Positions 907 to 53,716 are shown, counted from the stretch's first letter. The stretch: 64,000 nucleotides of DNA from Patescibacteria group bacterium UBA5147 (GCA_002415345.1 DHXV01000001.1:484111-548110), one strand, 5' to 3'. Notes: generated by a model from the sequence alone, not told the origin. Translations and numbers: made by a program.

Positions 907-1611
907 ATGATCGAACAATTGTTTGGTTCAAAGACTAGAGTAAAGCTTTTGAGCCTCTTCTTTAATAATCCCGGACGTCCGTTTTATGTCCGCGAAATAA
1001 CCCGCAAAATCGATGAACAAATAAACTCCGTCCGACGAGAGCTGGCGAATATGCTCTCCATCGGACTCGTCAGTTCCGACGGTGCCAACAACCGTCTCTA
1101 TTACGAAGTGAATCCGAAGTATGAGTACTATGAGCAGCTCCGCAGCATCTTCACCTCTATGCCCAATCGCAGCGCCGACCCGATTATGAAGGAAACGCAG
1201 GAAGAAGATCAGATCGTCAAGAAAATACGTTCGACAGGGAGCATCCAACTGGCATTCCTAACCGGCTCATTCGCCCGCGACAGCCGCACCAATGTCGATA
1301 TCTTCATCGTGGGAGACGTCAACAAGGCCCGCCTGGCAAAAGTTGTGAGTGAGATGGAGCAGGAGATGGGCCGCGAACTGAATTACAGCTGCCTGACATC
1401 CGCCGAATACGACTACCGTTTGGGTCTCAACGACCGGTTCCTTACCAATATCCTGGAAGCTAAGAAGATTATCGTGATTGACGGCCAGGATGAGAAGCCG
1501 CTGGTTCATTCCGACGTTACCTTCGGCGAATTCGCTGACCGTGCAGACGGGGCCACCGCTTTACCTATCTCAACTTACACCCGGGCCCGCGGCCGCAGCA
1601 GCCATTCGTAA
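907..1611 (+). CDS. Winged-helix plus nucleotidyltransferase-domain protein
   Basis: N-terminal HTH-like region and a GSFARDSRTNVDIFIVGD minimal nucleotidyltransferase motif. GAGGGAG RBS lies before the ATG. Confidence 0.5.
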   Translation: MIEQLFGSKTRVKLLSLFFNNPGRPFYVREITRKIDEQINSVRRELANMLSIGLVSSDGANNRLYYEVNPKYEYYEQLRSIFTSMPNRSADPIMKETQEEDQIVKKIRSTGSIQLAFLTGSFARDSRTNVDIFIVGDVNKARLAKVVSEMEQEMGRELNYSCLTSAEYDYRLGLNDRFLTNILEAKKIIVIDGQDEKPLVHSDVTFGEFADRADGATALPISTYTRARGRSSHS

Positions 1612-2589: not shown

Positions 2590-2697
2590 GGTGTTGCGTC
2601 CAGTTATGTAACTGTCCGATAATATCAGATATGAGCCCCAGGGTCAATGTTCGCTCGCGTCGGCGACCAAATAGCCAAAATGGGCTACAATATGCTT

Positions 2698-3336
2698 ATG
2701 AACTTAGATCCGTTATCCCTTGGAGCAGTTTTTTTTGCGCTTGTCGTGGGTTTGGTCCTGCATGAATTCATGCACGCCTATGTCGGCTATCGCCTAGGGG
2801 ACGACACCGCCCACGCCCAAGGGCGCATTACGCTGAATCCGATGGCCCACATCGACCCGTTTACGACATTGATGTTGCCGTTCTTCCTGCTTCTGGCGGG
2901 CCTACCTGTGTTTGCGGCCGCCAAACCCGTACCATTCAATCCGTGGGCGCTCAGAGGCGGGAAGTGGGGAGCAGCAGCCGTTGCGGCGGCCGGCCCGCTG
3001 ACTAACCTGAGCATCGCAATCTTCTGCGGTCTTTGGCTCCACCTATTGCCCACATCGGCCCTGGCCTTTACGATTCTGGAGTCAATGGTACTGGTCAACG
3101 TCGGTCTGTTCGTGTTTAACTCTATTCCGCTGCCCCCGCTTGACGGTTCCCGGGTCTTATACGCGGTCGTGCCGGAATCCGCGAGGGAAGTGATGGACCG
3201 GATTGAGCATGCCGGGCTAATCGTAATTTTCGGCTTCGTAGCCATTATGTGGTACACCCCGCTTGGCGCCATGCTTGGCGGCCTGATCCGAGGAATCACC
3301 GCATTCCTGTTGCCCGCTGGCACGCTTGGGATATAA
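2698..3336 (+). CDS. Site-2 protease family (M50) zinc metalloprotease
   Basis: HEFMH zinc motif in a TM helix and a downstream LDG motif. Start refined to the ATG 7 nt after a TACAAT -10 box (leaderless pattern). Confidence 0.75.
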   Translation: MNLDPLSLGAVFFALVVGLVLHEFMHAYVGYRLGDDTAHAQGRITLNPMAHIDPFTTLMLPFFLLLAGLPVFAAAKPVPFNPWALRGGKWGAAAVAAAGPLTNLSIAIFCGLWLHLLPTSALAFTILESMVLVNVGLFVFNSIPLPPLDGSRVLYAVVPESAREVMDRIEHAGLIVIFGFVAIMWYTPLGAMLGGLIRGITAFLLPAGTLGI

Positions 3337-3604
3337 TAAAGGCAGCTCTGCGGTACTGGAATCTGGCTAATCATTTTTCTCTGTACGATTACCAACGGGA
3401 GTCCAAGATTGTTCTGGCCCGTGGGCTTAGTAACTGAGGACACCCACCTGCTTATAGCAGGGAAAAGTTGGACTGTCGGGACCGTATTGCGGAGTGTCAC
3501 TTATCTAAGATATGAAAAGTCCCGGAATCTCCATTTGGAGGTTCCGGGACTTTGATTTCGGGTTATAATGGTTCTCTAACTTGGATGAAGCCGAGTGGCC
3601 ATAG

Positions 3605-4087
3605 TCAGAACGGAAGTATCACGGTCAAGAGAGGCTCTGTCCGCGTATCGCTCTTGTACACGATGTCGAGGTGATTTTCGTGAGCCTCAAGGACGTCCCG
3701 CCATGCATCCAACGCTCGGCAAACTGCCACTCGTTTGATGCATTCATCAAGGAGCATGATCTTTTCAAGATCTTCCTGTGTACTATCGCGCAGATAGATT
3801 CCAAAACGATTTGGTGACAGTTTTTTGTGAGTGCTGAACGATCGTTGGTATCGACCAAGTATAAGCAGGTTGGATGTTTCAGCCTCTACGAATCCGTAAA
3901 ACCCCCCTTTTGCTTCGGTTTCCAGAACCATCCGCCAAAATTTCAGAGCTTTGCGTAGCGTGGCCACACTGTCTACGCCGAGCAGACGGCGGGCGTAATT
4001 GAAAGTTTCGTTATCTCTGTCGTAGAGTTCTAGATTCAATCTGGGCATTTCGCAGATCCAATCCTTGAGGAAGGTGAAACGGGACAA
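3605..4087 (-). CDS. Hypothetical 160-aa protein, downstream partner of an overlapping two-gene module (toxin-like position)
   Basis: Start overlaps the stop of the upstream 70-aa gene by ATGA. About 48% GC versus about 56% in flanking DNA. No recognisable catalytic motif. Confidence 0.45.
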   Translation of the reverse strand: MSRFTFLKDWICEMPRLNLELYDRDNETFNYARRLLGVDSVATLRKALKFWRMVLETEAKGGFYGFVEAETSNLLILGRYQRSFSTHKKLSPNRFGIYLRDSTQEDLEKIMLLDECIKRVAVCRALDAWRDVLEAHENHLDIVYKSDTRTEPLLTVILPF

Positions 4088-4089
4088 GT

Positions 4090-4302
4090 TCAGAAGAAAA
4101 TGACTCGTTCCGGCTCGGTGTCTGAGTCAGAAGAAAAGATGAGGGTCTTGCCTCCATTTTTCTGTGCCTCGACAACACTGCGCAAGAGCGCGAGTGCGCG
4201 GAGAGTGGTGAGGGTAAAACTACAGCCGAGTGCAGCTTTGAGATAATCAGCATTGGCTAAACCCTTATCGGAAAGGTTCATCGATATCTTTTTGACGGCC
4301 AT
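4090..4302 (-). CDS. Small RHH-like (CopG/Arc-type) DNA-binding protein, antitoxin-like position
   Basis: AAGGAG RBS 4 nt before ATG (MAVKKISMNLSD...). N-terminal beta-strand followed by two helices. Translationally coupled to the 160-aa ORF. Confidence 0.4.
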   Translation of the reverse strand: MAVKKISMNLSDKGLANADYLKAALGCSFTLTTLRALALLRSVVEAQKNGGKTLIFSSDSDTEPERVIFF

Positions 4303-4489
4303 GATGCTCCTTCGGTAGGAATTAACTAAGGTCAAGGCTCATATAGGATCTCGAATAGCTTATTATAACCTTGATATTTGTGTTGGTCAATATTTTGAGC
4401 AGCAATCTACGTCAGACTGTTTGAGAGGTGTTGCGGCAGTGAGCTAATTAATGGATAATGCGAAGGTTAATCGCGTTCAAAACGTATAT

Positions 4490-4565
4490 CGGGGTGTGGC
4501 GCAGTTGGTAGCGCGTACGGCTGGGGGCCGTGAGGTCGCAGGTTCAAGTCCTGTCACCCCGACCA
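4490..4565 (+). tRNA. tRNA-Pro (anticodon GGG)
   Basis: Cloverleaf built by hand. The 7-bp acceptor CGGGGTG/CACCCCG, D-arm GCGC-AGTTGGTA-GCGC, anticodon loop CTGGGGG, T-arm GCAGG-TTCAAGT-CCTGT and 3' CCA are encoded. Confidence 0.88.
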
Positions 4566-4577
4566 AAGGAATTATTT

Positions 4578-4967
4578 ATGAGAACGTTCATCTTCAAGAA
4601 ATTGGTTCGAGACGGCATAGTCGTGAGCATTAAACAGCTTGGTAGTACGGCTGACACGCAGCAGCTGGAAGATTCTGCCTTCGTAGCTAAGCTCCTCGAA
4701 AAATTCCAAGAGGAACTGGCCGAAGTTGCGGAAGCCTCAGCCACGGATATTTCCGGGGAGATGGGTGACTTATACGAGTTGCTCGATTGCTTGGCTATAG
4801 CCAAAGGCACTACTCCAGAGGCAAGCCATGCGGCCCAGGCCAAGCGCAAGGCCAAGATGGGCGGGTTTGAGGAGCGCCTGTACGTTGAGAGTATAACTAT
4901 TCCCGATGATGATCCCTGGGCGCCGTACTACGCCGCGCGCCCGGAGCGTTTTCCCGAAGTTCTCTGA
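4578..4967 (+). CDS. MazG/HisE-like nucleoside triphosphate pyrophosphohydrolase (small all-alpha NTP-PPase)
   Basis: AAGGA RBS. EEL-AEVAEA...GEMGDLYELLD resembles MazG-type metal-binding helices. The listed ORF start at 4530 lies inside the tRNA, so the start was moved to 4578. Confidence 0.45.
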   Translation: MRTFIFKKLVRDGIVVSIKQLGSTADTQQLEDSAFVAKLLEKFQEELAEVAEASATDISGEMGDLYELLDCLAIAKGTTPEASHAAQAKRKAKMGGFEERLYVESITIPDDDPWAPYYAARPERFPEVL

Positions 4968-5035
4968 TTCGGTCAGGCGTTCGGCATCGAGAGAGCTTAG
5001 GCTTGCTCCTCTAGTCTGTTTAGACTATAACTTCA

Positions 5036-5956
5036 TTGTCCATCCACGTCGCTATAGCAGCGGCGCCCATGAAGGGAAGCACCATGTCTGCACAATCAAC
5101 GCCCGCAGGATCTGATCACCCGCTCATGCAGTTTCAGCCGGAATTTCCGAAAAACTGGTATTACTGGACCCAAGATTGGAAGGCGGCCGGCAATTCCCAC
5201 GTCTTACGGCAAGGACTGATCAGAACCGGCTTCGACACTGGCTTAGTGTGGGGTCACACCAATCACTCCGGCGAGCCGATCTGTTTCTATCTTGAACTGG
5301 CTGACGGCTGGTACAACGGCTTCGTGGGCATGGCGGACGACTATGTCACCTCAAACCGCAAGGAGCTCAGTCAGCTCGCCCTGAGCGTCCTGTTGGAGAA
5401 GGCTTTACGCAATACTGCACCCGACTACCGCCCTCCATCCTGGGCCGATCAACTCGATCAGGATGGGGTACTCGATAAGCTGCTCTGGTTCTTTCGTTCA
5501 GACGGGCAGTCGTCTTGGATCCCCAATCTGGGTTCGGTAAACAGCAGTCCAAGAGAGCAAGCCTTGCGGCGGTTCCTCAAGGACTTCGTCGACTACGTCT
5601 GGCTGGATCGGAGCGGGAATGCGCGATTTACTTTTAGGAATTTTCCGTCTTTCCGGCCGCAGCTTATCGCGATATTGGCCGGCACCAATCGGCTCAAGAT
5701 CCTCCTGGACCCCAAGTACATGCTCGATGAGCCTTGCTGGGAGGCACTTCGGAGCTTGGCCTATTCTGAACATCCGGATAGAGAAGGCGTATCACTTGAA
5801 GAGGCATCTTTTGAATCGAAGGGCCAGACAGCAAAGGATGCCGCCCACGTTTTGATTATGCGTGGCATTGACCGTGACCAGCAGGCTAGAGCCGATGAGC
5901 GGCACGCGCTCAAGCAGAGGCTGCGCGAAACACAGACGCGACTGGAACAGATCTAG
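5036..5956 (+). CDS. Hypothetical protein (306 aa), start uncertain (TTG 5036 or ATG 5069/5084)
   Basis: Long ORF with no recognisable motif. Lies between tRNA-Pro and rnpB. Confidence 0.4.
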   Translation: MSIHVAIAAAPMKGSTMSAQSTPAGSDHPLMQFQPEFPKNWYYWTQDWKAAGNSHVLRQGLIRTGFDTGLVWGHTNHSGEPICFYLELADGWYNGFVGMADDYVTSNRKELSQLALSVLLEKALRNTAPDYRPPSWADQLDQDGVLDKLLWFFRSDGQSSWIPNLGSVNSSPREQALRRFLKDFVDYVWLDRSGNARFTFRNFPSFRPQLIAILAGTNRLKILLDPKYMLDEPCWEALRSLAYSEHPDREGVSLEEASFESKGQTAKDAAHVLIMRGIDRDQQARADERHALKQRLRETQTRLEQI

Positions 5957-5967
5957 CCGGTTTCGAC

Positions 5968-6000
5968 AATCCCTGAGTGGCATCGCGCCACTCAGGGATT
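5968..6000 (+). terminator. Strong 14-bp hairpin after the 306-aa ORF (terminator-like, weak U-tract)
   Basis: AATCCCTGAGTGGC-atcgc-GCCACTCAGGGATT. Confidence 0.45.
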
Positions 6001-6044
6001 TATCATAAGCTTGAAAAAACGGCCTCAAAAAGGCATAATACTCT

Positions 6045-6413
6045 AGTCAGACCAGAAGATGATCGCGCTTGCCGCAAGGCAAGTGAGGAAAGTCCGGACA
6101 GCATAGAGCAGGACGATTGCTAACGGCAACCGGGGGCGACCCTAGGGAAAGTGCCACAGAAACGAGACCGCCTTCAGCAATGGAGGTAAGGGTGAAACGA
6201 GTGCGGTAAGAGCGCACAGCCAAGCCGGGTGACCGGTGAGGGAGGTAAACCCCGTTCGCTGCAAGGCTGCTCCATCACGCCGCAAGGTGGGCTGCTCGCC
6301 CGATGAAGCGTATACGCCGCTTGAGGTCGCTGGCAACAGCGACCCTAGACAGATGATCATCCCGTGCCGGCCTTGCGCCGGCCCGACAGAATCCGGCTTA
6401 CTCCTGGTCTGAC
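6045..6413 (+). ncRNA. rnpB: RNase P RNA (bacterial type A)
   Basis: P1 stem GTCAGACCAG...CTGGTCTGAC, the universally conserved P4 strands GAGGAAAGTCCGGAC and ACAGAATCCGGCTTA, and a CATAAT -10 box about 7 nt upstream. The antisense ORF 6142..6471 is spurious. Confidence 0.8.
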
Positions 6414-6463
6414 ACGTTTTTATTTCGCTTATCATGTTAGAATGAGAGCAATTATCAAAGCTT

Positions 6464-12999: not shown

Positions 13000-14511
13000 T
13001 CAGCCCCTGGCCCGATATTGGAGCGCCTCGGTGAAGTGTTGCCGGCTTATCTTTTGTACGCCCGCCAAATCGGCGATGGTGCGGGCTACCTTCAGGGTCC
13101 GACTATATCCTCGCGCCGACAGCCCCAAATTATTCATCGCCGTCCTGGCCAAAATCTTGGTTGCCGGGTCGAGTTGGCAATATTGATCGATATGGTGCGG
13201 CGTGAGCTGGCAATTGAGTTGGATATCAGGCTCCGAGCTGTAGCGACGGCGTTGCACGTCACGGGCGCGCCCGACCCGCTCCGCCACGAGGACAGTCGGT
13301 TCAGCGGCCGGCTTATCTATTAGCAAGTCGGTTCGAACGCGGGCAACCTCGACCACTAGGTCGATCCGGTCTAAAAACGGCCCTGATAAGCGGTGCTGGT
13401 AACGCGAGATTTCTCCGGAGGTGCAGCTGCATTTCTTGTGCGAATCGCCGGCATAGCCGCAGGGGCAGGGGTTTCTGGTTCCCACCAGCATGAACTGCGC
13501 CGGGAAGGTGGAGGCATGACTGGCGCGGGACACCGTCACGCTGCCGTCTTCCAGCGGCTGCCGCAGCACCTCGAGTACCGCCCGGGGAAACTCGGGCAGC
13601 TCATCAAGAAACAGGATGCCGCGGTGGCTCAAGCTGATTTCGCCGGGTTTTGGATGGGTACCCCCGCCGATCAGGGCGACACTCGAGGCAGTGTGGTGCG
13701 GGGAGCGAAAGGGGCGTCTGGATATGATTCCATCAAAATTGAGGCCAGCCAAGCTATAGATACGTGTGACTTCAACCATCTCGTCGAACTCCAAGGGCGG
13801 CAATAACCCGACCATGGCCTTGGCCAGCAAAGATTTACCCGCTCCGGGTGGGCCTGACAATATCAGGTTATGACCCCCGGCAGCAGCTATCTCCGCGGCC
13901 CGCTTAGGCATGTCCTGGCCGGAAATACTGCTCATATCAACCATAGCTTCAGGGGCGATAAGTGGCACTATTGTAGTTTTACTTACAACGGTTATGCTTA
14001 ACCCTCCGCTCAAATGCCGGTAAAGTTCGGCCAGGCTTGCTACCGGATACACCAGGGTATCCCCGACCAAGGCGGCCTCCATAGAATTTTCAGCGGGTAC
14101 GAAGATACGCTTGAACGCGGAGGATTGGGCCAGCTGGGCGGCCAGCAGGGCGCCCCGCACCGGCCTGACCGTGCCATCCAGCGCCAGTTCGCCCAGAAAC
14201 AGGCAGCTGCGGATTGACTCCGCGCTCAGCTGGCCGCTGGCCACCAGCACCGCCACGGCCAGCCCTAAGTCGTAGCCAGTGCCGTCTTTGGGGAGATCGG
14301 CCGGGGCGAGGTTGAGCGTCAGTCGTTTTTGGGGCAGGATGAGACCGCTGTTACGAATGGCGCTGCGCACGCGTTCCCGGGCTTCCTCGACCGCTTTGTC
14401 GGCTAGCCCCACTACGACGAAGCCGGGGAGACCGTTGGCCATATCGCACTCAATCTCAATCAGCCGGCCGTCCAGGCTGAAGAGGGCAGGGGCATAAACT
14501 TTCGAAAGCAT
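13000..14511 (-). CDS. comM: YifB/ComM-family Mg-chelatase-like AAA+ ATPase
   Basis: MLSKVYAPALFSLDG start with AGGA RBS. Lon-like N-domain, Walker A ILSGPPGAGKS, and a C-terminal ChlI-like domain. Confidence 0.85.
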   Translation of the reverse strand: MLSKVYAPALFSLDGRLIEIECDMANGLPGFVVVGLADKAVEEARERVRSAIRNSGLILPQKRLTLNLAPADLPKDGTGYDLGLAVAVLVASGQLSAESIRSCLFLGELALDGTVRPVRGALLAAQLAQSSAFKRIFVPAENSMEAALVGDTLVYPVASLAELYRHLSGGLSITVVSKTTIVPLIAPEAMVDMSSISGQDMPKRAAEIAAAGGHNLILSGPPGAGKSLLAKAMVGLLPPLEFDEMVEVTRIYSLAGLNFDGIISRRPFRSPHHTASSVALIGGGTHPKPGEISLSHRGILFLDELPEFPRAVLEVLRQPLEDGSVTVSRASHASTFPAQFMLVGTRNPCPCGYAGDSHKKCSCTSGEISRYQHRLSGPFLDRIDLVVEVARVRTDLLIDKPAAEPTVLVAERVGRARDVQRRRYSSEPDIQLNCQLTPHHIDQYCQLDPATKILARTAMNNLGLSARGYSRTLKVARTIADLAGVQKISRQHFTEALQYRARG

Positions 14512-14609
14512 GACAACGCATCCTGTTAGGTACCTAGTGATAATACCGAACATAGACCGAATGTCAAAGTTCCGCCATATTTTTTGCACTTTTTTGTTGT
14601 CAATGGTTA

Positions 14610-14647
14610 TTGACTTACTTACCTAACTAATCTATACTGCCCCCATG
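14610..14647 (+). promoter_or_regulatory. Sigma70-type promoter of the trmB-like gene, leaderless
   Basis: TTGACT, a 17-nt spacer, TATACT, then 6 nt to ATG 14645. Confidence 0.6.
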
Positions 14648-15433
14648 AACGAACAAGAACTTATCTCCCATATCGAAGAAATCGGCCTCAGCAACAAAGA
14701 GGCCAAGGTTTACGTTGCCTGCCTCAAGACCGGTCCATCACCCGTCCAGCGTATTGCCGACCAGTCTGGAATTAAGCGCGTAACCACCTATGTGATTTTA
14801 GAGTCACTAGTTGGGTTGGGCCTGGTATCCCAAAGCGTAAAAGGCAAGAAGACCTACTTCATCGCCGAAGAGCCTTCTAACTTAAGCCGTCTGCTGGAAA
14901 AGCGTGAGCTGGAACTTAACGATCAAAAAGCTAACTTCGAGCAGGTCTTGCCTGAGCTTTTGAGCTTGAAAACTCTGCCAAAAGAGAGTCCTAACGTTAA
15001 GTATTATGATGGTGCCGATGGTATCAAATCGGTTATGAGTACGTTTTTAGCTGCGCATAAAAATGAAGTCGCCGACGGTATTTACGGAATCAGCAATTTA
15101 GATCAGCTGTATGCATTCTTCCCCGAGTTTCGTACAAGCTCATCTAACCCGACGCGCGTGCGTCAAGGCGTGAAGAGCAAGATTATATACAACTTCAAAG
15201 ATGGTCCGGTGTTTCGAGACTCGGATGCCGAAAAGAATCGTGAATCTCGATGGGTCCCCGATGATCTCTTTCCCTTGAACGGTGATATTAACATAGTAGG
15301 GGATCACATTATCCTACTCTCCTTGACCGGCTCGAGCCCGATCGCTGTAACAATCGACAGTCATGAGCTAGCAACTGGACTGATCGGGTTCTTTAAGTTA
15401 GCTTGGGTAGCTGCCCAGCCCTATAATAAGTAG
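14645..15433 (+). CDS. TrmB-family transcriptional regulator
   Basis: N-terminal HTH (LSNKEAKVYVACLKTGPSPVQRIADQSGIKRVTTYVILESL) plus a C-terminal sugar-binding-like domain. Confidence 0.7.
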   Translation: MNEQELISHIEEIGLSNKEAKVYVACLKTGPSPVQRIADQSGIKRVTTYVILESLVGLGLVSQSVKGKKTYFIAEEPSNLSRLLEKRELELNDQKANFEQVLPELLSLKTLPKESPNVKYYDGADGIKSVMSTFLAAHKNEVADGIYGISNLDQLYAFFPEFRTSSSNPTRVRQGVKSKIIYNFKDGPVFRDSDAEKNRESRWVPDDLFPLNGDINIVGDHIILLSLTGSSPIAVTIDSHELATGLIGFFKLAWVAAQPYNK

Positions 15434-16006
15434 CCATTAGTGGTCATTTGGCAATTATAGTGTTGACTTAGAGTGTATAAGGTGTTAAGTTTGTTAGGCT
15501 TTGGTACCCGATGTGCCTTAGCCTGGCCTCGACTACTTCAGACGAGGGTTCAGTTCCAGCTAGGCAGTGCGTTAGGAGAAGGCGATGTCCACATGACTTC
15601 CATGCAGACACCAACTTCCGGATCCCTGCCAGAGAAGGTGTAGCTGATAGGCTCACCTCTGGTACAGGGACCCGGTCAATCAGTCTCCGTCGCCTCTGAC
15701 CGGGTCGCTCGGAGATAACCGGGGCAATGGTTTAGCGACCATAGTCCCAGCGGCGGCGTCGGCTCAGCTTGGCCTCGGTCGGTTGAGCCGGCACCGTTTG
15801 CATCCCACCTACAACATATTTATTTCATCGCAATCGCGGGAATAAATCGCACCTTGTACAACCGTTCATAACCATCCCACGGGATTCCATATCCCGAACC
15901 ATTCCCCAGTATCACCCTCAGTCTACGGACCAAGATGTGAACTGGGGTTTTCGCTTGTTCATTACCAAGCTCAGCTCTGATTAATGGTGTAGCAATTATC
16001 CGACAT

Positions 16007-50749: not shown

Positions 50750-51817
50750 ATGGATATAACACTTCTCATTCTCGTGCTCGCAGCCGTTCTCATTGGGTTC
50801 GGGGTCATGGTTCTGTTGCTTAACAGGCAGCTCTCCAGCCTCAAAACCGGGATGAAGGACGATACGGCATTCGGCCTGATCAAGCAGGACCTGCAGGGGA
50901 TTCATCAAACCCTGAACGACCGCTTGGATAAAAATAGCACGAGCATGAATGAGGCCATGCAGCGTCAGTTCGCCGCTTCGAGCCGCCTCATCGGCGAAGT
51001 GACCCGTGACCTCACTGAGCTCAAAGAGAGCAATAAGCAGGTGTTGTCGATAACGGATGACCTGAAGCTGTTACAGAACACGCTTCAAAACCCGAAACAG
51101 CGAGGAGTGCTCGGCGAATATTTCCTGCAGAACGTCTTGGAGAACGTGTTGCCGCCTGACAGGTTCGAACTGCAGTATAAGTTTGCCGACGGCGACATCG
51201 TCGACGCTATCATTCGACTCGACCGGGGCTTGATCCTGCCGGTCGATTCCAAATTCAGCTTGGAAAACTATAACCGCCTCATGGATGAGAAGGATAAGAC
51301 CAGACAGGACGCCCTCATCAAGGCAATCAAGGTTGACCTCAAAGCCCGCATCGATGAAACCTCCAAATACATCCGCCCGGGCGAGGATACGATGGACTTC
51401 GCCTTTATGTTCATCCCCAGCGAGGCAATTTACTACGACCTGCTGATCAACAAGGTCGGTACGCTGCAATCGAACTCGCGCGACTTGATTGAGTACGCTT
51501 TCCGCGACAAACACGTCATTATCGTGAGCCCGACTTCGTTCATGGCATACCTCCAGACCGTAATGCAGGGGCTGCGCAGCCTGCAGATCGAAGAGAAGGC
51601 CAAGGACATTCAAAAGCGGGTGGGGGAGCTGGGGCGGCATATCACTGCCCATGAAATCTACATGCAGAAAATGGGGTCGTCGCTCGGTACGACGGTGAGC
51701 CACTATAACAACGCCCATAAATCGCTGGCCCATGTCGATAAGGATGTCGTGCGCATCGCCGATGTTTCGCCGGGAGTAGAGGCTATCTTGCTCGACAAAC
51801 CTACGGCCGAGGACTAA
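50750..51817 (+). CDS. rmuC: DNA recombination protein RmuC
   Basis: TATACT -10 box 6 nt before the ATG. N-terminal TM plus coiled coil, and the RmuC C-terminal domain. Confidence 0.85.
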   Translation: MDITLLILVLAAVLIGFGVMVLLLNRQLSSLKTGMKDDTAFGLIKQDLQGIHQTLNDRLDKNSTSMNEAMQRQFAASSRLIGEVTRDLTELKESNKQVLSITDDLKLLQNTLQNPKQRGVLGEYFLQNVLENVLPPDRFELQYKFADGDIVDAIIRLDRGLILPVDSKFSLENYNRLMDEKDKTRQDALIKAIKVDLKARIDETSKYIRPGEDTMDFAFMFIPSEAIYYDLLINKVGTLQSNSRDLIEYAFRDKHVIIVSPTSFMAYLQTVMQGLRSLQIEEKAKDIQKRVGELGRHITAHEIYMQKMGSSLGTTVSHYNNAHKSLAHVDKDVVRIADVSPGVEAILLDKPTAED

Positions 51818-52110
51818 GCTTGGGCGGTTGCCAGGGCAACGGCCGCAAGCAAAGGAATTATTATCGGCTGCGCCAGCTCGTAGGTTGGTGTCCGTCCTGT
51901 CGGCTGAACTAGTAAAAGACCTTCATCTCGGAGCACAATCAAATGCCGGTGAAGGTCTTGCTTTGATACCGCGATTACGGCGTTGAACTGCCCGGCGTGC
52001 ATGGGGCCGTTATCAGCGGCCAGCTGGAGTATTTCCAGGCGAACTGGGTGAGCCAGTGCTTTGAGGGTGGCGGCTAGGGTTTGGTGGTCGTTCAGCTGGG
52101 GATGTTTCAT
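51814..52110 (-). CDS. ArsR/SmtB-family transcriptional regulator
   Basis: LAHPVRLEILQLAADNGPMHAGQ...DLHRHLIVLRDEGLL wHTH. Confidence 0.75.
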   Translation of the reverse strand: MKHPQLNDHQTLAATLKALAHPVRLEILQLAADNGPMHAGQFNAVIAVSKQDLHRHLIVLRDEGLLLVQPTGRTPTYELAQPIIIPLLAAVALATAQA

Positions 52111-52401
52111 GGTGGTGGCTGGTCCTGGAGGTTCGTTAGGGGGTTTGGGTTGTTCTTCTAAGGGGGAATGGGTTTTTATTGTCTGGTGTGGGCCTCATCT
52201 ATTACGATGGGGTTGTGAAATCGGGTGGCTGGGCGCGCGAGTTGATGTGGTCGGCTGGCTCTGGGTGTCTGCATCTAAAGGGGAGTGTAGTCCTTTAAAT
52301 GTTCCAAGTAAACATTTTCGTTTACTTACGTAGTAGGCTTTTAAATGACAGTTTTATGGCTTCGTGGAGGCATAATAATTGATAAATTTGACTAATGCAT
52401 T

Positions 52402-52423
52402 TAGTAAACAAAAATGTTTACTA
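52402..52423. promoter_or_regulatory. Perfect 9-bp inverted repeat (candidate operator) in the 610-bp arsR-trpS intergenic region
   Basis: TAGTAAACA-aaaa-TGTTTACTA. Confidence 0.35.
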
Positions 52424-52723
52424 CCTAGTTTTAAACAACTAACCTGTTCCTTATTTAGTGGGTACATGAGGGCTACCTAAACTAGCAGATCACGTGTCAG
52501 CAAAGGAAGATGCCGCTCTATAAGCGAGCATAGGCCATTAATCGACGGAAAAAACAACTGGAGACGGTAACAATATAAGCTAAGTGTCAAATGGAAGGCA
52601 CCTAAGCTTAAGGGAAAGTTCAAAACCTCCTAACAATCATCTAAAGCCCCATATGCTACACTGAACACAAGAACTAAGCAGCAAAATTACTGCTAAAATA
52701 AACACCATGAAGAAAGGTCTGCA

Positions 52724-53716
52724 ATGAAACGAGTGCTCTCAGGCGTAAAGCCAACCGGTGATCTGACCCTAGGTAATTATATTGGCGCCATGAAGCGTTG
52801 GGCTACTATGAGCCGCCAGGAAGGCGTTGAGCACTTCTGGTTCGTACCAAACCTCCACGCCCTGACTATTCGCCCCAACCCCGCAGAGCTTAAGCACAAC
52901 ACGCGCAGCGCGGTCGCTTGGCTGATGGCCGCCGGCATTGACCCGGCAACGTCGTATATCTTTGTGCAGAGTCAGATTCCGGCGCACTCGGAGCTCACTT
53001 GGATCCTCAACAACTACGCTACCTTAGGGGAGCTGAACCGGATGACCACGTTCAAGGACAAGTCGTCCAAAATGGGGAGCGAGGGCCAACTCGTGGGTCT
53101 GTTCGATTACCCCGTGCTGATGGCGGCGGATATCCTGTTGTACGACGCGGACGAAGTACCGATTGGAGAAGACCAGAAACAGCATGTGGAACTTACGCGT
53201 GACATTGCGACCCGCTTTAACAACCTTCACGGTGAGACGTTCAGGGTACCCGAGCCAACGATTCAGGCTGCCGGCGCACGTATCATGGACTTGCAGGATC
53301 CGACGAAGAAGATGAGTAAGAGTGATGAGGATACCGGCGGTTGTATCCTCTTGAGTGACGAGCCGGCCGTGATTGTGAAAAAGATCATGCGGGCCGTTAC
53401 CGACAGCGGCAGTCAGATAAGCGGAGGCGCCGATAAGCCGGCGCTCAGCAACCTGCTGGTAATTTACTCGACGCTGTCCGGCAAGACGGTAGCTTCCATT
53501 GAGGAAGACTATGCCGGGCGTGGTTACGGCGAATTCAAGAAGGACCTTGCCAAGGTCGTAGCCGACGAGCTGGCTCCACTCCAGGCCAAGCACGCCCAGC
53601 TTATGAAACCGGGTAACGATAAGATCGACCAGGCTCTGGAGCACGGCTGGTGGAGGGCGAGCGAGCTCGCGAACGCCAAGCTGGCCCAAGTAAAGGAGTT
53701 GCTCGGGCTATTGTAA
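52724..53716 (+). CDS. trpS: Tryptophan--tRNA ligase
   Basis: VLSGVKPTGDLTLGNYIGA (HIGH-like TLGN) and KMSKS. Confidence 0.9.
   Translation: MKRVLSGVKPTGDLTLGNYIGAMKRWATMSRQEGVEHFWFVPNLHALTIRPNPAELKHNTRSAVAWLMAAGIDPATSYIFVQSQIPAHSELTWILNNYATLGELNRMTTFKDKSSKMGSEGQLVGLFDYPVLMAADILLYDADEVPIGEDQKQHVELTRDIATRFNNLHGETFRVPEPTIQAAGARIMDLQDPTKKMSKSDEDTGGCILLSDEPAVIVKKIMRAVTDSGSQISGGADKPALSNLLVIYSTLSGKTVASIEEDYAGRGYGEFKKDLAKVVADELAPLQAKHAQLMKPGNDKIDQALEHGWWRASELANAKLAQVKELLGLL

Follow-up and report, generated by a model that had tools for sequence, protein, structure and literature searches.

The 64,000-nucleotide (nt) stretch of DNA from Patescibacteria group bacterium UBA5147 that was analyzed here (GCA_002415345.1 DHXV01000001.1:484111-548110), referred to below as the window, carries two small neighboring genes on its minus strand, encoding a 70-amino-acid (70-aa) protein (positions 4090 to 4302) and a 147-aa protein (3605 to 4048). 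Both lie on a 985-bp segment (3501 to 4485) which also holds a hairpin and the promoter region of the pair and which is bounded on the left by a probable 6S RNA (3342 to 3498) and on the right by tRNA-Pro(GGG) (4490 to 4565), both on the plus strand. An M50 peptidase gene (2647 to 3336) directly precedes the 6S RNA on the plus strand. On the other side, the tRNA is followed on the same strand by a gene for a MazG/HisE-like protein of 129 aa (4578 to 4967), a gene for a predicted all-alpha protein of 290 aa (5084 to 5956), and the class A RNase P RNA (6047 to 6416). A sequence-only reading of this region had treated everything from 3605 to 5960 as one low-GC accessory islet beside the tRNA and had proposed that the minus-strand pair is a type II toxin-antitoxin or small defense module whose larger member could be a new toxin family. 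The analysis presented here suggests instead that the two proteins are paralogs of the ribbon-helix-helix (RHH) type. Comparisons were made with a set of 80 GTDB loci surrounding the M50 peptidase gene (designated by L numbers), using tblastn, ARAGORN, Rfam, and nhmmer. The host lineage is Saccharimonadia (TM7, Patescibacteria), and identical contigs occur in several metagenome assemblies.

The 70-aa gene starts with an ATG that has GAAGGAG ahead of it and ends in a TGA at 4092 to 4090. The next open reading frame (ORF) opens either at a TTG at 4087, after a spacer of 2 nt, which would give a protein of 160 aa, or at an ATG at 4048, after a spacer of 41 nt, which would give one of 147 aa. The ATG is conserved in all three species that have the gene and is the more likely start. 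Both of the minus-strand ORFs first described are present, but the larger one more likely encodes 147 than 160 aa, and the ATGA overlap on which translational coupling of the pair had been proposed does not exist. A 12-nt stretch inside the 147-aa gene is complementary to the ribosome-binding site of the 70-aa gene, which was attributed to chance.

The larger protein had been described as having no recognizable family, and it turned out to contain two copies of the 70-aa domain. In BLASTP searches, each half of the larger protein proved homologous to the 70-aa protein (E values of 6e-6 for the C-terminal half and 3e-4 for the N-terminal half), and shuffle tests of this homology gave z-scores of 9.6 and 8.6, with none of 2,000 shuffles reaching the real score. 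A hidden Markov model (HMM) of the family found two domains in the 147-aa protein, at residues ~1 to 65 and 76 to 147 (73 and 81 bits), and two full-length domains in every ortholog. The two modules are connected by a conserved linker, QRSF[SN]THKKLSP. Within each module, a short strand is followed by two helices, a GG turn, and then a pair of short hydrophobic segments, and the 70-aa protein consists of one such RHH-like module including a C-terminal extension of ~25 residues. Judged by these sequence comparisons, the 147-aa protein consists of the 70-aa domain duplicated in tandem.

The assignment of the domain to the RHH class was reached through distant relatives. Direct scans of the 70-aa protein against Pfam, NCBIfam, PADLOC, and PHROGs gave no match, and the sole library match of the 160-aa form (PADLOC HEC-01B; E = 0.021) was treated as noise. 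Word-indexed homolog searches recovered only the window's own clusters and one ortholog each for the pair, and a scan of metagenome contigs with the alignment of the 147-aa protein found nothing. An exhaustive profile search of 1.84 billion representative proteins, in which a profile of six domain copies served as the query, recovered 17 further proteins of 66 to 97 aa (E values of 2.7e-8 to 1e-3) together with a tandem protein (P0011); two additional matches (P0013 and P0015) were repetitive and spurious. In the resulting family alignment (A4; 20 sequences), 5 of the 20 members match the Pfam family RHH_1 (PF01402), one of them (P0021) above the gathering threshold (25.3 versus 20.5 bits). 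The family profile also aligns with the full RHH unit of the CopG structures (PDB 2cpg and 1b01), with an E value of 0.0023. The top PDB matches of the same profile were to de novo TIM barrels, which contain repeated helix-strand motifs, and were dismissed as artifacts. Alignment of the family profile with CopG by hhalign gave a probability of 93.8% over 40 columns, a result corroborated by the 2cpg/1b01 match. Against NCBIfam there were 13 weak matches (E values of 1e-4 to 0.1), among which the shared or strongest ones were to NikR, aCcr1, BrnA, VapB, and RelB, all of which we take to be RHH-type families; the other eight were scattered over unrelated families. An AlphaFold2 (AF2) model of the 147-aa protein, built from a two-sequence alignment, was unusable (predicted local distance difference test [pLDDT] score of 39) and contained no strands, and its helices sit at the places expected for helices A and B of both modules. 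Taken together, the profile matches support the prediction that the N-terminal ~40 residues of the domain form a CopG-type RHH unit. The suggestion that the 70-aa protein is RHH-like thus held up, by a profile route leading through distant relatives to RHH_1 and CopG.

The discovery that the two proteins share a domain bears directly on the proposed toxin-antitoxin or small defense module, in which the 70-aa protein would be an RHH antitoxin and the 147- or 160-aa protein a new toxin. Such a module would be in keeping with two small codirectional genes behind one strong promoter-like site, with an upstream gene that is RHH-like, as in many antitoxins, and with the low GC content and patchy distribution of the segment. 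However, the supposed toxin is made of two copies of the supposed antitoxin's domain, the genes do not overlap, and neither Pfam, NCBIfam, PADLOC, nor PHROGs offered a credible toxin or defense match (the HEC-01B match being noise). Small genes located beside distant family members match no toxin family. The 147-aa gene genuinely codes for protein: purifying selection on it is relaxed but evident, with a synonymous divergence (dS) of 0.69 and a ratio of nonsynonymous to synonymous divergence (dN/dS) of 0.30 in comparison with its ortholog in L013 and a dN/dS of 0.21 in comparison with that in L097. The latter, which encodes 149 aa, is found in L097 and L098 without the 70-aa gene. Because the tandem gene stays constrained in a genome that lacks its supposed antitoxin, a toxin that depends on its antitoxin is hard to reconcile with the data. 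We therefore regard a toxin-antitoxin or defense module as very unlikely, and the proposal of a new toxin family was not borne out; that the pair are RHH paralogs rather than toxin and antitoxin can be stated with high confidence.

The segment that carries the pair differs in composition from its surroundings. Its GC content is 46.6%, which places it in the lowest 0.3% of 985-nt windows (mean for the window, 54.9%; standard deviation, 3.3), and GC at third codon positions is 51 to 55% for the pair versus 65 to 70% in neighboring genes. The MazG-like gene (54.1%) and the gene for the 290-aa protein (55.6%) are native in this respect, so that the low-GC islet first described applies to 3501 to 4485 but not to the genes beyond the tRNA. 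Other stretches of low GC content (45 to 47% in 985-nt windows) occur in the window at about 14400 to 15600, 18850, 25300, and 51800 to 53100; the first includes an intergenic region and a 262-aa ORF (14645 to 15433) that by eye resembles a helix-turn-helix (HTH) regulator, and the last includes a 98-aa ORF (51814 to 52110, minus strand) that by eye resembles ArsR. The boundaries of the insertion were set by alignment to the empty site of L014, where the start of tRNA-Pro lies 11 nt beyond the 6S RNA. Just inside the left boundary, a repeat search found an 18-bp inverted repeat (3516 to 3553) that is 94% complementary with a 2-nt loop, and a similar hairpin is present at the same place in L097. 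Lying between the 6S RNA and the 3' end of the 147-aa gene, this hairpin probably serves as a terminator in both directions.

At the other end of the segment, a 187-bp intergenic region is common to the promoter of the pair and to the divergently oriented tRNA-Pro gene. A minus-strand site at 4362 to 4390 (TTGACC-17-TATAAT) agrees with the sigma-70 consensus at 11 of 12 positions, the best score between 3300 and 6500, and its -10 hexamer is kept in L013. It is predicted to be a near-consensus sigma-70-type promoter upstream of the 70-aa gene. On the plus strand, a conserved TTGCGG-17-GATAAT was noticed by eye near 4430 to 4458 and falls under the threshold of the promoter scan.

Low GC content and absence from close relatives are traits of genomic islands, and here they fit 3501 to 4485 alone. 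A repeat search for flanking direct repeats of at least 12 nt found none at the insertion, only short pairs at chance level, and no integrase-like ORF or Pfam family was detected in the neighborhood of the window's pair; the idea of a tRNA-linked island consequently found no integrase and no att-like repeat in its favor. The same observations bear on the possibility that the segment is the remnant of a plasmid, phage, or integrative element, with the pair being regulatory, partition (ParG/Omega-like), or relaxosome-accessory RHH proteins that were stranded and are now decaying or domesticated. The last category includes TraY, which is a relaxosome accessory protein, and the tandem RHH architecture is held in common with it. 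A mobile origin would also suit a 985-bp insert that is low in GC and confined to three close species. One distant family member (P0016) is encoded on a metagenome contig (L102, 5285 to 8915) among ParB_N-like, DUF6551, weakly GIY-YIG-like, AAA_25, and Rad52/Rad22 genes, a set that resembles phage or plasmid replication and recombination genes. However, the neighborhood of the pair contains no integrase, relaxase, partition ATPase, or replication gene and no flanking repeats. The 147-aa protein has no relatives in GenBank phages or IMG/VR, and the distant member P0023, the only one used as a query, was unmatched in PLSDB plasmids and in phages. The gene for a further distant member (P0018) stands alone on a chromosome, and in two or three species both genes of the pair remain intact and are maintained by purifying selection. 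A mobile-element remnant is thus an unlikely explanation, though one that retains some weight.

The surroundings of the insertion are a conserved cluster of RNA genes. Across Saccharimonadia, the backbone runs from an HTH-nucleotidyltransferase-like gene through genes for a metallo-beta-lactamase-fold protein, ribosomal protein L28, and the M50 peptidase to 6S RNA, tRNA-Pro(GGG), and RNase P RNA and then on to a sugar transferase, a glycosyltransferase, and L20. A 234-aa protein encoded at 907 to 1611 (plus strand) gave weak HTH and nucleotidyltransferase (Polbeta/NTP_transf_2) matches, none of them above threshold; in almost every Saccharimonadia locus examined it occupies this position, with 44 to 94% identity. 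The tRNA-Pro(GGG) (ARAGORN; 63.3 bits in Rfam) and the RNase P RNA (Rfam RF00010; 264 bits) are located where the sequence-only reading had placed them. The probable 6S RNA, at the left boundary of the insertion, had not been noticed. It scores 41.2 bits against Rfam RF00013 (local E value of 1.3e-6), below the gathering threshold of 46.4 bits, and would therefore be missed by standard annotation. Positional orthologs in L018, L024, and L026 exceed the threshold at 48.7 to 53.2 bits, the copy in L013 is 97 to 100% identical to that in the window, and nhmmer found 6S RNA directly after the M50 peptidase gene in ~25 Saccharimonadia loci (for example, L014, 823 to 975; L024, 10583 to 10739; and L094, 7888 to 8036). 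In the window, a promoter-like TTGCCC-16-TATAAT (3310 to 3337) lies ahead of it. In most Saccharimonadia loci tRNA-Pro lies downstream of the M50 peptidase gene and 6S RNA, and in relatives RNase P RNA lies downstream of tRNA-Pro. Because only 5 to 11 nt separate the 6S RNA from tRNA-Pro in relatives with nothing inserted between them, the two are probably cotranscribed there.

Two variable slots interrupt this order, the first between 6S RNA and tRNA-Pro and the second between tRNA-Pro and RNase P RNA. The first is empty (5 to 100 nt) in L014, L017, L018, L020, L024, L027 to L030, and L094, and in other loci it holds 0.35 to 3.9 kb of unrelated genes, such as an EamA transporter and a dUTPase in L026. 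The contents of the second range from nothing (L028) to several ordinary genes, including DUF2177 and DUF1295 membrane proteins in L014; an FAD-binding oxidase, a histidine phosphatase, a GNAT protein, and a peptide deformylase in L026; and a patatin and an ASCH-RNase H protein in L094. A search of six-frame ORFs from all loci with the family HMM found RHH family members among Saccharimonadia only in the species of the window, L013, and L097/L098. In L013, with flanking genes at ~89 to 96% identity, the 70-aa protein has its only ortholog (~95 to 96%) and the 147-aa protein is 65% identical, while the positions of the MazG-like gene and the gene for the 290-aa protein lie off the contig. In L097 (flanks, 81 to 94%), the 70-aa gene is absent, the 147-aa protein is 51% and the MazG-like protein ~70 to 71% identical, and an FAD oxidase gene occupies the place of the absent gene for the 290-aa protein. 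All four genes are absent from L014, although its flanks are 84 to 90% identical. The more distant L094 (flanks, 53 to 81%) lacks the pair and the MazG-like gene but has the 290-aa protein at 66% identity; in L096 (flanks, 57 to 81%), the left side with the pair is off the contig, the MazG-like protein has no tblastn match, and the 290-aa protein is 58% identical. Since the presence and absence patterns are independent across relatives, the four genes do not behave as one islet. What stood of the four-gene accessory islet is that its genes are partly or wholly missing from close relatives (L014 has none of the four and L097 two of them); what did not stand is their unity, and the comparison of orthologous loci further showed that the gene for the 290-aa protein is syntenic and as conserved as housekeeping flanks in distant genomes. 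The description as accessory is thus partly supported: it holds for the RHH pair and is weaker, and to be judged gene by gene, for the other two.

Comparison with L013 also revealed an unusual pattern within the 70-aa gene. Neighboring genes have dS values of 0.72 to 0.88 and dN/dS values of ~0.03 to 0.08, whereas the 70-aa gene has a dS of only 0.13 (dN/dS, 0.15). Its first 51 codons (4150 to 4302, minus strand; L013, 258 to 410) contain a single synonymous change (dS of 0.028), and this segment is 98 to 100% identical at the nucleotide level, versus only 60 to 65% in the adjacent promoter. The L28 gene (2359 to 2589, minus strand) likewise has a low dS (0.15) and 97 to 98% nucleotide identity to L013. 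In this comparison of two sequences, the low dS in the 70-aa gene is most simply explained by a short recombination tract, and constraint at the nucleotide level may be another explanation. The latter would be expected if the region contained a nucleic acid element, either an RNA or a cis-acting site, linked to the expression of tRNA-Pro, in which case the role of the protein would be immaterial. The contrast between a dS of 0.028 and values of 0.69 to 0.88 in flanking genes, the sharp drop in identity at the promoter, and an antisense fold z-score of -2.2 could all be read in this way, as could the separation of tRNA-Pro, by the insertion, from the 6S promoter, its probable driver in relatives. 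However, the pattern comes from two sequences only, for which a recombination tract gives the same result, and the L28 gene shows a similarly low dS. The fold of the sense strand is unremarkable (z-score of -0.8), and Rfam has no match in the region. Moreover, L097 keeps its tRNA-Pro although the 70-aa region is wholly absent, and the 70-aa protein has clear homologs at the protein level. We consider a nucleic acid element of this kind improbable. A more elaborate version, in which the pair is wired into the 6S/tRNA-Pro/RNase P RNA cluster as a lineage-specific regulator and the frozen ~150 nt are an embedded cis element (an operator array or an antisense or leader RNA) coupling RHH and tRNA expression, would be a long shot.

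The favored explanation, to which we assign a probability of roughly 60%, is that the two genes encode paralogous RHH regulators carried on a lineage-specific insertion. The common ancestor of three close species may have acquired the pair, presumably by horizontal transfer, on the 985-bp low-GC segment. The 70-aa protein would act as a homodimer, like other RHH proteins, whereas the 147-aa protein would have arisen through duplication and fusion of the module and would fold as a single-chain pseudo-dimer that could recognize an asymmetric DNA site. The promoter at 4390 to 4362 probably drives transcription of both genes. Both proteins would bind DNA and regulate transcription, repressing their own promoter and perhaps also the divergent tRNA-Pro promoter; for this specific role as autoregulators, we put the chances at about even. 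Because 6S RNA and tRNA-Pro are probably cotranscribed in relatives with an empty slot, an insertion that separated the tRNA from the 6S promoter would have had to supply a new tRNA promoter.

Several points weigh against this explanation. Neither protein of the pair has a direct library match to RHH_1, so the RHH assignment is transitive, and the structure prediction for the 147-aa protein (pLDDT of 39) supports neither the pseudo-dimer nor a C-terminal hairpin. Inspection of the promoter region by eye revealed no conserved operator repeats shared by the window and L013. A function as transcription factors is deduced from the fold class alone, and the pair may have an antitoxin ancestry, RHH modules being the DNA-binding part of many antitoxins.

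The MazG-like gene downstream of the tRNA is a separate matter. Its 129-aa product has only subthreshold library matches, to Pfam PRA-PH (PF01503; E = 0.017, 16 bits versus a cutoff of 21.3) and to NCBIfam MazG (E = 0.017, 14.7 bits versus 208). However, residues E45, E46, E49, E61, and D64 and an N-terminal KLVRD motif are invariant among the window protein and its homologs in L097 (~70 to 71% identity) and in L051 (~34 to 35%), the last of which adjoins the M50 peptidase gene. The pattern EExxE...ExxD is the defining metal-binding motif of MazG/HisE proteins. It is therefore plausible that the protein is an all-alpha nucleoside triphosphate pyrophosphohydrolase of the MazG/HisE type, as had been suggested. 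The accompanying idea that the gene is phage- or island-borne fared less well, given a dN/dS of 0.05 in comparison with L097, a native GC content, and no match of the protein in GenBank phages or IMG/VR. The gene behaves as a strongly constrained chromosomal gene and not as island cargo. No solved structure in PDB was matched by sequence.

The last gene before the RNase P RNA had been read as encoding 306 aa from a TTG at 5036, but a start at the ATG at 5084, giving 290 aa, agrees with gene calls and with the starts of homologs. The family comprises seven homolog clusters with 55 to 100% identity. A distant relative (24% identity) is encoded next to secF in L105; two other ORFs there (4173 to 4934 and 5951 to 6409) resemble LAGLIDADG homing endonucleases by eye. 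The homolog lies directly upstream of RNase P RNA in L094 (10001 to 10855), L095, and L096 (301 to 1110), and in every genome with visible context the distance is ~90 to 160 nt on the same strand. In the window, a hairpin (5968 to 6000) and a promoter-like site (6011 to 6039) lie between the two. Homolog identities of 66% (L094) and 58% (L096) compare with 53 to 81% for flanking genes. The gene is thus conserved like its housekeeping flanks and keeps its position in distant genomes, which argues against its being cargo of an islet. The description of its product as lacking detectable motifs proved accurate: the 306-aa form has no match in Pfam, NCBIfam, PADLOC, or PHROGs, nothing meaningful in a PDB sequence search, and no relatives in GenBank phages or IMG/VR. 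An AF2 model of the 290/306-aa protein was entirely helical (pLDDT of 66), and a Foldseek search of PDB with the 306-aa model returned only generic helical-repeat matches (best E value of 0.33; template modeling score of ≤0.3), which were discarded. The model and the gene's distribution point to a lineage-specific, all-alpha protein family whose fixed place by RNase P RNA is the only functional lead.

The value of these results is mainly negative, in that what had looked like a new toxin family is a duplication of a predicted DNA-binding module, and nothing at the locus challenges current understanding. Since these episymbionts have few transcription factors, lineage-specific ones are of some interest. 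The search also assembled a family of small RHH proteins with a C-terminal extension, comprising 19 clusters, including a single-chain tandem form, that has no Pfam or NCBIfam model of its own. The order of 6S RNA, tRNA-Pro(GGG), and RNase P RNA helps to annotate reduced genomes, in which 6S RNA often scores below threshold. The conserved all-alpha protein constantly found beside RNase P RNA is the remaining point of interest.

Each part of the locus can be set beside a known system. The 129-aa protein shares EExxE...ExxD with MazG/HisE enzymes but scores under the family cutoffs. With the CopG/Arc/MetJ proteins of RHH_1, the family described here shares the whole unit of beta-strand, helix A, and helix B, a small size, and an expected dimeric mode of DNA binding. 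It differs in the ~25-residue C-terminal extension of each module, with the consensus GG-hhhh-x-D-G-xxx-hhhh (h, hydrophobic), and in its divergence, the window proteins being below detection and most family members having no library match. The 70-aa protein resembles RHH antitoxins (RelB, VapB/Rv0623-like, BrnA, and DUF6290) in fold class, in size, and in its first place in a probable two-gene operon, and individual family members give weak matches to such antitoxins (E values of 0.02 to 0.05). Unlike them, its gene has no toxin partner, and the gene downstream duplicates the same domain and is found alone in L097. The tandem architecture itself has a counterpart in TraY of the F plasmid, which is reported to be a single-polypeptide RHH dimer (bioRxiv 10.1101/2024.12.19.629322). 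The 147-aa protein also has two RHH repeats per chain, so that a monomer could supply the whole two-stranded ribbon. Its sequence shows no detectable relationship to that of TraY, and Pfam returned no match of any kind. No relaxase gene, origin of transfer, or conjugation genes occur near the 147-aa gene, whose neighbors instead encode the M50 peptidase, L28, glycosyltransferases, and the like. Unlike TraY, moreover, the tandem protein is accompanied by a single-module paralog, which is encoded immediately upstream of it.

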